Positions 7,001-10,000 of a stretch of DNA of 64,000 nt are shown piece by piece (position 1 is the first letter of the stretch; the number at the start of each line of letters is the position of its first letter). The notes under the pieces were generated by a model. It saw nothing but the letters and a program-made list of their open reading frames with translations, was not told the origin of the DNA and did not search any database. Where the stretch lies: positions 620,121-684,120 of the forward strand of contig NW_019217785.1 in assembly GCF_002571385.2 (NCBI RefSeq), given 5' to 3'. The position numbers were made by a program, and so were the translations under genes. This stretch comes from Stylophora pistillata (lineage: Eukaryota).

Positions 7001-10000
7001 ATGTCAAAATATACAAAACTTTCCCAAAAAAATTACCTGTTGCCCAAGGGAACCTTGCATTCCTCTCAATCCAAGTGGGCCAACGCTTCCCTAAAATTGA
7101 AATGAATGGCCAAACATACAGAGAAATTTTTATACCGTTGTCGTTTATAATAATCTTTCACAGTTAACTATGGAACAACACGACAGAACTTAATCGATTT
7201 TTATTAGAGGTAAAAATATGTCACTTGTGAAGTTTTGTAGCCTTGGGCTTTCGTATGGCATAGTTGGACTTACCGAAGAGTGTTTCACAGCATATCAGCG
7301 CCGAAAAACTACATTTCTAAGACTGACACATTATTCGCTAATCGTCCGTGAGTATACCTCTGGCCCTGATTGTCCGGAAGATCCCAAACTTCCTTGGTCG
7401 CCCCTCTCTCCCTGAAATATGATGAATGCACTTATATGAATATCAGTGACGGGACGTACTACTGCTTTTCGTCCACAATAAAATAACAGTTGGTTTCGTT
7501 AATATGGCGTGGATAAAGAGCTTTTCTCAGCTACTTGCCATCTCAATAACCGATCCACCCTGCTACAATGTTTTCCCCACACATCCTCAAAACATTTCTT
7601 CTCTAGCAGATCTAGGTGAATTTTTACGTATCTTTCCCTATGGCCTGGAAACATGTTCCTCTTAGAGCCTGAGGCCTGAGAGTAGAGCTCGATGCAACTG
7701 CTTCTGAAGGAAAGAAAAGCGCTAGCGAGGAGAAATTTCAAGTTATCATTGCGAATGTCACCAAAAAGCCATGATGTCACGGGTGGTTCGCGTTTTTCAC
7801 AATCAGGCCTTCAGCTTCAGTAAGACGCAAACGGGTTAACCTACATATTTTTATGCGATACGTTTTCTTCTTATGTGAACAGCAAATTATTTTTCTCAAC
7901 TGAACGGCCCTGTTATGAGACTTAGTTGACGTACTCGCCAACACAACACAACACAACACAACACAATATCGCCTGTCTGGATTACAACAGTGAACCCTTA
8001 ACGGGAAATTAAACACTCAAAGACCATGCAAAATATATGAGATGGTACCTTTTCACCTTTATTTCCATAATCCCCTCCTCTACCTGAGTTTCCTTTACCC
8101 CCCTGAATTAAAAAAAATTGACTGTCGGTAAGTTAACAAGGAATCTCTCATGAGATACAATGAATATACGAAGTTCATATATTTTGAGCTGCGGTAGTAG
8201 ATACGTATGATGCACGATCCTCGCAGTAGAGAGCGCTATTTATGCAATAGCGAAAATCAGACCTGAAAAAAATCAGGCCTGTACCGGATTCGAACCACTG
8301 ACCTCTGCGATACTAGTGCAGCGCTCTACCAATTGAGCTAACAAGCCAACTGGGAGCAGGCCGTTAAGTTGATTCGTAATAAACCCGTGATGATAAATCA
8401 GATACAATGAATTCATTGTATCTGATTTATCATCACGGGTTTATTACGAATCAACTTAAAGGCCTGCTCCCAGTTGGCTTGTTAGCTCAATTGGTAGAGC
8501 GCTGCACTAGTATCGCAGAGGTCAGTGGTTCGAATCCCGTACAGGCCTGATTTTTTTCAGGTCTGATTTTCGCTATTGCATAAATAGCGCTCTCTACTGC
8601 GAGGATCGTGCATCATACGAATCTCTCATGTTTAGCAGGCAAAGAACTTGACAGACAAGAACAAAAAAAAATGTGAAGTGGAAATGCTTACTGGTGGTCC
8701 TTCCCTCCCTGACTCTCCACTTTGTCCTTTAGATCCACGATGACCCTAACATTGCAAATCAACAATCTTGTCAGTAAAAGCAAACTATATCACAACCGAA
8801 AGATTGAACTCAAACTACCTTGAGTCCTGGTGAGCCATTCTTGCCTTCCTTTCCCTTTTTTCCCTGCTTACCCTGAAAATAAATATCAAAATAGAATGGT
8901 CCACGGATGCATGGTCTATGAAAAGGGCGACACTTTCCTTGTTACTACCATCGTTTGTACTTTTAAAACAAGTCATTAATAAAAAACTTGGTGGGTTAGC
9001 AATTTAACTATAAAGGAAAAATGTGATGAATGTAAGCAAAATACCACTCCTCCAGGATCGCCAATACGTCCACCTTCACCGGGATGGCCTGTAAGTCCCT
9101 GTAAACATAAAAATGTTAAACAGATGTGGTGGTTAGTATTGTGCACATTTATAAACTGGAAATTGATTAGTTCTGCCTACCCCGAGACCAATGACTCCAG
9201 TATCTCCAGGAGTGCCTGGGGCTCCAGGTAAGCCCTGCAAATGAAAGTAAAGTAGTAAACATAAACTAGTCTTTACTTCATTATTTTTTAATTTGTCATC
9301 GCACTTTGTTCAAGCTTTCCTAACGCCTACCCTGTTTGTAAACACATTGTCACCCAACTAGCGCGATGGTCTCGTGTGAGAGAGGCTTTCCCCCTACCTC
9401 CCCATGCTAAGTAGTACTAATGCGTTCACTACAAATGATCAAACTGAAGTCCACGCGGCCGACTTTCAAAATTTACAAGTCGAATTTTCCGTTCCTTTCC
9501 CACCGCGTAAGACCTTCTGGAGCTCATGATGAAAAGTGAATGGGCTATCGAATACACTGTTGGAAAATTAAAGATTTTGGGTCAAAACGTACAACTTTCA
9601 AAATTTTCGACTTAGCGCTACGCAATTCTTCTAAGCATGGAGAATTCTAGTGACCCACTGCGCGGGTTTAGTACAGTTCGTACGTTTTTCGCTTCTAACA
9701 GTCCATCAGGAAATTTTTTGAATAAAGCGTTTGTCTCGAAATATTTCTTGGTCATTTTAGTAAAGTAAGTAAAGCTTTATTCACACAGGGTAGCCCATTC
9801 AGCTCTAAGGCTGGTATCCATAGGGGCCCTGTTTCTTAAAAATAATTTACATCAAGATTTTCAATTTTATGTATATATATGACTAGAATTTTAAAACTAC
9901 ATTAACAGCCTAAAACTACAAAGCCAAAACACAATTAAGACCTAAAATAGTAGATAAAATATCAAAGTTAAGATAAAAAGAAATGTCTTGCTCGGCGGCA

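Follow-up and report, generated by a model that had tools for sequence, protein, structure and literature searches.

What kind of mobile element carries a tRNA-like segment in each arm of a palindrome, and which enzymes copied it? This question is raised by an insertion at positions 8141..8630 of the window (the whole stretch of 64,000 nucleotides of Stylophora pistillata DNA analyzed here), for which a first-pass annotation had suggested a terminally redundant, tRNA-containing unit that moves with Penelope elements (PLEs). The insert comprises 466 bp, a 259-nt arm followed by an inverted 207-nt arm. Its parts, its host intron and the related repeats nearby are as follows, unit position 1 being the first base of the tRNA-like segment.

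8103..8691, minus strand: intron of a collagen-like host gene, flanked by two Gly-X-Y exons of 54 nt each and measuring about 110 nt once the insertion is subtracted
8141..8152, plus strand: left target-site duplication, 12 bp
8153..8411, minus strand: left arm, 259 nt or 1.05 units, from unit 184 via 247/1 to 195, with the long ("tail") 3' end
8153..8204, minus strand: the "tail," unit 144-195, at the left arm's end only, containing an AT-rich hairpin
8266..8272, minus strand: T7 run resembling a Pol III terminator, within a predicted hairpin loop
8275..8347, minus strand: tRNA-like segment of the left arm, unit 1-73, with two non-pairing T-arm positions
8286-8296, minus strand: B box of this segment
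8329-8340, minus strand: A box of this segment
8348..8389, minus strand: leader, unit 206-247, an imperfect antisense match to the tRNA-like segment, with predicted rod pairing
8412..8618, plus strand: inverted right arm, from unit 184 via 247/1 to 143-144, with the short 3' site
8476..8548, plus strand: tRNA-like segment of the right arm
8619..8630, plus strand: right target-site duplication, 12 bp
14968..15190, plus strand: older-subfamily copy, 76% identical, a single arm with the short-site end and 12-bp duplications
1747..2015, no strand assigned: fold-back formed by the 3' end of a P1-family PLE, with a tail of about 57 nt and a 13-bp duplication; for comparison only
6205..6994, no strand assigned: PLE 3' fragment folded back on itself, including a GIY-YIG-like frame and a core resembling a hammerhead; for comparison only
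19072..19252, no strand assigned: fold-back of a P1-related PLE end; for comparison only

All coordinates of the anatomy described in the first-pass annotation were recovered. The inverted copy forms a 416-bp palindrome (8204-8619, two mismatches), its arms meet without a spacer (center 8411/8412), and the 12-bp target duplication lies around the insert at 8141-8152 and 8619-8630. The tRNA-like part is internal (8275-8347, minus strand) and is followed at once by the T7 run at 8266-8272. The further 12-bp duplication, described for the copy at 14980-15178, was found at 14968-14979 and 15179-15190, and the three PLE remnants, annotated at 1760, 6208 and 19072, are indeed fold-backs (1747-2015, 6205-6994 and 19072-19252), the first of them with a 13-bp duplication. 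The 13-mer that had been taken for a terminal redundancy of the family is present at both places (8153-8165 and 8400-8412), but it is only the overlap of a 259-nt arm spanning 1.05 units, and the 5' ends of the family vary unit-wide. Both tRNA-like segments were classified by ARAGORN as Thr(AGT) and reached 53 and 48.9 bits with the Rfam tRNA model (gathering score, 29).

A search of the S. pistillata assembly (398 Mb; 5,513 contigs; gapped) yielded 7,087 exact matches to a 29-mer at the leader/tRNA junction and none to the reversed control. The period of the annotated repeated unit is 247, not about 248. This 247-nt unit is protein-free and also occurs in tandem arrays of near-identical copies, which the first-pass annotation had suggested looking for and which reach about 11 units at period 247. 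Subfamily A is that of the window insertion; subfamily B is 86% identical to A, and one of its tail motifs has 1,733 exact matches; an older group, C, is 70-80% identical and includes the copy at 14980. We conclude that the repeat family is real and is a young, abundant, recently active non-autonomous element.

Across the genome, 97 insertions were mapped in 77 segments (720 kb), which comprised the best genome matches (on 36 of 37 listed contigs) and, for the 29-mer, its first 100 pattern matches. Two arms in the order minus-plus, as in the window, were present in 46 of the 97, and inverted partial copies, also proposed for survey, are thus not confined to the window; 23 insertions were single plus arms, 21 single minus arms and 7 complex. 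No two-arm insertion had the tail-to-tail order, plus-minus. The 3' ends were scored only if they did not adjoin N and had at least 85% identity, and 128 of the 141 scorable ends fell into two windows amounting to 13% of the unit, at unit 138-152 (57 ends) and unit 188-205 (71 ends). One short (~146) and one long (~195) end were combined in 34/46 minus-plus pairs, while like ends were seen in 2/46 and one end elsewhere in 10/46; either end type may be on the left or on the right. No poly-A or simple-repeat tail was found at either of the two 3' ends. Target duplications measured 12-14 bp in 34/46 and 11-16 bp in 37/46 of these pairs, with none found in 9/46, and the chance control gave 11-16 bp duplications in 4 of 282 random boundary pairs. 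Targets were AT-rich (78% versus 61%) with a weak symmetric half-site, T being at +2 in 50/76. Among the 44 single arms, 16 ended 5' at an assembly gap, 2 had a duplication, 2 had a gap on the 3' side, and 24 had neither gap nor duplication.

The 5' ends, in turn, were spread over the whole unit, indicating variable 5' truncation. Only 2/116 lay at the tRNA start in this first set and 113/150 arms crossed the unit junction, figures that are partly by construction because the sample was chosen with the junction-spanning 29-mer and is biased toward arms crossing that junction. A second set was picked by the B tail motif (twenty further loci, 29 rows). It contained 15 minus-plus and no plus-minus pairs, 8 combinations of a short and a long end and 8 duplications of 12-14 bp, and no 5' end at unit 1-8, with one weak match at 240. 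Four short single arms in this set carried 11-12 bp duplications and had little or no tRNA part. Independently of the assembly, reads from two raw RNA runs, 2% of which was read, departed from the unit into unlike flanks at unit 195 (300 and 268 reads) and at unit 143-147 (803 and 731 reads), the two positions also seen in the mapped insertions. The older subfamily had the same insertion geometry, as judged by eye. An apparent fixed end at the tRNA start was produced by the bounded scoring windows of the search and disappeared once the insertions were mapped in full. A 5' hot spot at unit 152-156 arose partly from assembly gaps; other 5' clusters fall on hairpins with ambiguous junctions and therefore do not reveal an RNA 5' end.

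This insertion geometry matches that of GIY-YIG-coding PLEs of the same genome, although the P1 and P2 numbers are small. The P1 3'-end repeat occurs in the window at 1747-2015 and 31881; elsewhere in the genome it is connected to a GIY-YIG ORF, and it has many near-identical copies (150 scored of 4,676 candidates). Its two 3' ends lie about 57 nt from each other, and its duplications have a mode of 13 (8-16 in 11/19 candidate pairs). In P2, the 3' ends are about 90 nt apart, and 11-12 bp duplications were found in 5/7 pairs. Head-to-head arms and a tail on one end are described as PLE hallmarks in PMC3846280 and PMC8557442, and according to PMC11167929 the tail of an anole PLE is delimited by two internal RT starts, both strands are cut and extended, and a dimer is predicted.

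In line with these data, it is highly probable that the 247-base tRNA-bearing repeat is copied by a PLE RT and endonuclease. Mobilization by PLE RT/GIY-YIG, as already advanced in the first-pass annotation, is the explanation that we favor with good confidence, and it has gained stronger support from the two fixed 3' ends, one per arm. We propose that a PLE protein, probably a dimer, would nick both strands of AT-rich DNA 12-14 nt apart, and that RT would start from each nick at unit ~146 or ~195, two internal sites separated by about 50 nt, both primings using RNA from one source copy. Synthesis would circle the unit without a stop at the tRNA start, often for several rounds, and the two truncated cDNAs would be joined head to head, partly by snap-back.

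No sequence was common to the tRNA unit and P1 or P2. A partner sharing the unit's 3' part was not found in 70 GIY-YIG loci (30 + 40), in the merged P1 locus, in 20 P4 loci or in 20 tail-motif loci, a search that left Naiad and most other PLE families unsampled. The matches in these loci were ordinary insertions of the repeat. P1 was also considered as a partner on account of the target, but only 2/38 rebuilt target regions touched P1 (0.8% of sampled bases), too few for a partner to be named.

The relation between the arms bears on the template. Both arms were of one subfamily in 46/46 pairs; the tail-picked set had one mixed subfamily label, among low-identity copies. Rare variants were common to both arms in 21/150, compared to 15/4,714 between arms of different insertions, and because the arms share rare variants, one template was apparently read past unit length. 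In 30 insertions with at least four copies, 49 variants were present in all copies, 111 in one, 29 in some and 6 in all but one; in one insertion (C1_1025097), 6/6 variants extended across nine copies and both arms. Gene conversion, or the assembly of a genome with gaps, could account for part of this sharing. Since neither arm was contained in the other in 10/34 pairs, plain snap-back cannot make all of them, and since the 5' ends of the two arms coincided within 3 nt in 9/34 (2.8% expected), snap-back or a switch to the new strand helps in some. We infer that RNA of a single source copy was primed twice, once per internal site, and that a monomer-to-multimer step was involved. The simplest explanation for this step is a unit-length circular RNA as a rolling template, a candidate that may well be correct although we stop short of calling it probable. 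Repeated jumps on a terminally redundant linear RNA are possible and are put forward tentatively, and the copying of existing arrays seems unlikely. The genome data cannot separate a circle from repeated jumps on redundant linear RNA.

The RNA runs, from libraries not made for small or circular RNA, yielded reads over the unit on both strands at similar depth, 66-69% of which ran into the flanks, and gave neither a discrete RNA of the element nor a direct sign of a circular form; reads over the host collagen-like exons were on one strand. Joints that go back by 247 were present in 193 and 301 reads, and genomic arrays give the same signal. Among the alternatives to a circle, the one that survives best retains the PLE enzyme and gives it a linear read-through template from a partial tandem or array, for example in host introns, with jumps or array copying. 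To this possibility we assign a little under an even chance. It would account for the embedding of most RNA reads in flanking transcript on both strands, it suits the lack of a ribozyme to yield monomers, and according to the account in PMC11167929 a PLE needed no hammerhead cleavage in vitro and used unprocessed RNA as the main substrate. However, rare variants in all copies of both arms (C1_1025097) need a monomer-to-multimer step at some point, and the rod fold closes across the unit junction.

This fold was analyzed by prediction. The monomer had a z score of -4.1 (0/200 shuffles as stable) and the circular form of subfamily A a z score of -4.6 (0/40 shuffles). In the predicted rod, which crosses the unit junction, unit 206-247 pairs with the tRNA-like segment, with -80.5 kcal/mol versus -53.2 kcal/mol when the cloverleaf was enforced. 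Rod pairs were kept in 79% of cells (19 rows), compared to 29-39% when the pairing was slid, and cloverleaf pairs in 91% of cells across three subfamilies, the anticodon arm being fixed by the search pattern. Covariation was not above shuffles for rod or cloverleaf in these rows, mostly decayed copies, and RNAalifold detected 0 compensated pairs. A hammerhead core (CTGA.GA) was absent from both strands of subfamilies A and B, and the unit dimer had no Rfam ribozyme match at E≤10. The young subfamilies A and B have intact A and B boxes and an intact T7 run, together with two non-pairing T-arm positions. Most likely, the tRNA-like part acts at the DNA level via the A and B boxes, and the antisense leader is predicted to mask the cloverleaf in the RNA. 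A T7 run right behind the tRNA would be expected to end Pol III transcription short of the two RT starts, and for this reason the source of the template is unexplained. The origin of the RNA template is the weakest step of the PLE-passenger model.

A more complete version of the model would combine a tRNA gene captured as promoter and hidden by the leader, hammerhead-free circularization by the host, and a PLE dimer that recognizes the unit by structure without common sequence and rolls around one circle from two starts. The result would be a ribozyme-free "SINE of Penelope." As a whole, this combination is rather doubtful.

The first-pass annotation had alternatively considered the tRNA fold as an RNase P/Z signal. 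In its wider form, with RNase P/Z or a tRNA endonuclease cutting multimers into monomers, such a role fits the retention of cloverleaf pairs in 91% of cells, and the conserved T run, which makes Pol III an awkward source of template, would also favor it. Yet RNase P/Z processing is disfavored because the antisense leader is predicted to mask the cloverleaf: when the leader is present, the rod (-80.5 versus -53.2) is more stable by 27 kcal/mol than the enforced cloverleaf. Furthermore, the T-arm of the two young subfamilies has two non-pairing positions, genomic 5' ends and RNA ends are not in excess at the tRNA start, and no pile of starts or ends was seen inside the unit in the two RNA runs, which are ill suited to small RNA. 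We therefore regard a processing signal as improbable.

Outside the PLE framework, an ordinary tRNA-derived SINE, moved by a LINE and inverted via twin priming, is largely refuted and very improbable. In its favor, both young subfamilies have intact A and B boxes in their tRNA-like segment, the duplications are of TPRT size, and some single-arm copies have a duplication. However, in agreement with the first-pass annotation, which had rejected a canonical SINE, the copies do not begin at the tRNA 5' end, and they have two fixed 3' ends, one per arm, in place of a poly-A or simple-repeat tail. Moreover, the arms overlap in sequence, which is not what twin priming on a single linear monomer produces. 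Equally remote is a DNA-level element, such as a fold-back/TIR transposon, a Helitron or a satellite spread by recombination. Long inverted repeats with a duplication, and tandem arrays, recall such elements, but the two ends differ by the 50-nt tail, which may be left or right, the inner ends are variable, a pattern resembling 5' truncation, duplications of 11-12 bp also flank short single-arm copies, and the geometry is that of RT-coding PLEs of the same genome. Finally, although many array or palindrome centers coincide with assembly gaps (16/44 single arms end 5' at N) and no record among public DNA-run contigs spans the whole window palindrome, the palindrome is almost certainly not a product of amplification or misassembly, for contigs from independent DNA studies bridge the two flank junctions, which are in opposite orientation (left junction, X1, X2 and X9; right junction, X1 and X2), exact duplications flank the pair, and its arms differ at private positions.

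We compared the coral unit, for which PLE-mediated copying is the preferred reading, to described systems. Helenus reportedly depends on LTR machinery with PBS/PPT and has two direct LTRs and 4-5 bp duplications. The coral unit differs in its 12-14 bp duplications, its inverted arms and the lack of an LTR pair. What it has in common with Helenus, a tRNA-containing TRIM, is a small-RNA-gene cassette captured by a passenger of a non-LINE retrotransposon class (as described in PMC10886601). With GIY-YIG PLEs, as described in PMC11167929, PMC3846280 and PMC8557442, it shares partial tandems, a head-to-head inverted 5'-truncated copy and a tail on one end, as well as AT-rich targets and a target duplication. 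It departs from the PLEs of these accounts in having no ORF and no hammerhead, in its tRNA-like cassette and in a whole unit of 247 nt; the tail is about 50 nt, compared to 30-40 nt in the published PLEs covered there and 57 and 90 nt in the PLEs analyzed here.

Non-LTR retrozymes, as far as they are described in PMC7229834, PMC7761336 and 10.64898/2026.07.22.740005, are likewise non-coding tandem units of similar size (220-245 bp in corals) that range from monomers to long arrays and have a stable self-paired fold, and PLE dependence and rolling-circle RT have been proposed for them. The coral unit lacks their type I hammerhead and has Pol III A and B boxes, whereas retrozymes are said in these accounts to lack promoters. 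Circular RNA is described as abundant for retrozymes, whereas the circle of the coral unit is only a candidate. The schistosome elements Sm-alpha and Sj-alpha are presented in PMC6765202 and PMC2770079 as tRNA-related and tandem, with a Pol III-type promoter and a multimeric template, as in the coral unit. Unlike the coral unit, they have an active hammerhead, located downstream of the promoter, and head-to-head arms, two fixed ends or a PLE partner are not reported in the accounts given there. Non-autonomous Chlamys elements such as MRC1 are also non-coding PLE passengers with multicopy head-to-tail insertions (PMC8557442). As described there, elements of this type generally share 3' sequence with an autonomous family, in contrast to the coral unit, for which none was found in the loci sampled; they occur in green algae, and that account mentions no tRNA part. 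The coral unit thus works like known PLE passengers, most of which carry a self-cleaving RNA motif, but does not pass for a hammerhead-bearing element or a canonical SINE. We found no hammerhead-free tRNA-containing PLE passenger described in the literature searched; Repbase, Dfam or bioRxiv supplements may list the family.

PLE integration is itself still open, since neither second-strand synthesis nor the inverted arm is explained by the one in vitro study. The insertions of this family, young, short and numbering in the thousands, constitute a natural record of this process, and the rule in that record is one arm per start site, one source copy and nicks 12-14 nt apart. The 247-nt unit offers a minimal substrate for testing PLE integration. 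If the proposed account is true, it extends the SINE/LINE style of partnership to PLEs without a hammerhead and raises the testable question of how a ribozyme-free unit becomes a rolling template.

Repeats of this kind also affect genome analysis, as they score as tRNA genes (the window copies pass ARAGORN and Rfam) and break short-read assemblies. For a coral annotation, PMC13040556 gives 5,938 raw tRNA counts versus 674 after filtering, and tRNA-like repeats are a candidate factor in the high raw tRNA counts of coral annotations. Intronic fold-backs would also form long double-stranded RNA. In addition, a 50-codon frame of the unit, used as a protein query, matched 57 unnamed gene calls that carried no taxonomy.

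P1, a Penelope-like element (PLE) family of the same genome that carries a GIY-YIG open reading frame, is very young and abundant, and well over 100 of its copies had equal GIY-YIG scores (segments L219 and L221 to L250). On the basis of the target duplication and the tail length, not of sequence, P1 is the best candidate partner of the 247-nt tRNA unit. As a separate observation, a P1 end also served as an insertion target: in segment L081 (G000:C1:1733500 segment), a fold-back of the tRNA unit's subfamily B (1656-2201) lies within that end, at its inverted-repeat hairpin.

The window's own insertion of the tRNA unit is contained in a host gene, in which a duplication was also detected:

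5668-30059, minus strand: multi-exon collagen-like gene with Gly-X-Y exons
20041-20992: 707-bp tandem duplication containing a collagen exon

Approximately 40 nt separate the fold-back from the 3' splice site of its collagen-gene intron. Transcription of the fold-back in this short intron would yield a double-stranded RNA of about 208 bp.

In the RNA runs X23 and X24, reads crossing the tandem junction of the 247-nt unit (L001 1501-1747) favored one mate direction (126 versus 67 and 239 versus 62, respectively). If the libraries are stranded, as suggested by a few exon reads, the favored direction would correspond to the antisense strand of the tRNA. Subfamily A contains an open frame of 50 codons (L004 1240-1389), to which 57 unnamed gene calls in public metagenome assemblies were matched; these calls are likely spurious proteins.

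Another tRNA-headed repeat, distinct from the 247-nt unit, was observed at 24948-25075 and 54206-54333 and at loci L089 and L090; it starts near its own tRNA 5' end. At L089 and L090, which are 9 kb apart, it is fused to the upstream side of the 247-nt unit, which is present there from unit position 225 onward. Both loci have the same joining sequence, so that the arrangement is a chimera or else arose by duplication of the local region.

Further palindromic or inverted-arm repeats were present in the window, including a fold-back unrelated to the tRNA unit, around which a script found no target duplication:

44723-44886: this fold-back, 164 bp, without a spacer
33993-34346: MITE-like element with inverted arms of 106 nt and a short direct repeat at each end
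16504-16888, 24292-24615 and 60553-60874: first of two dispersed palindromic repeat families
45150-45737 and 52735-53050: second of these families
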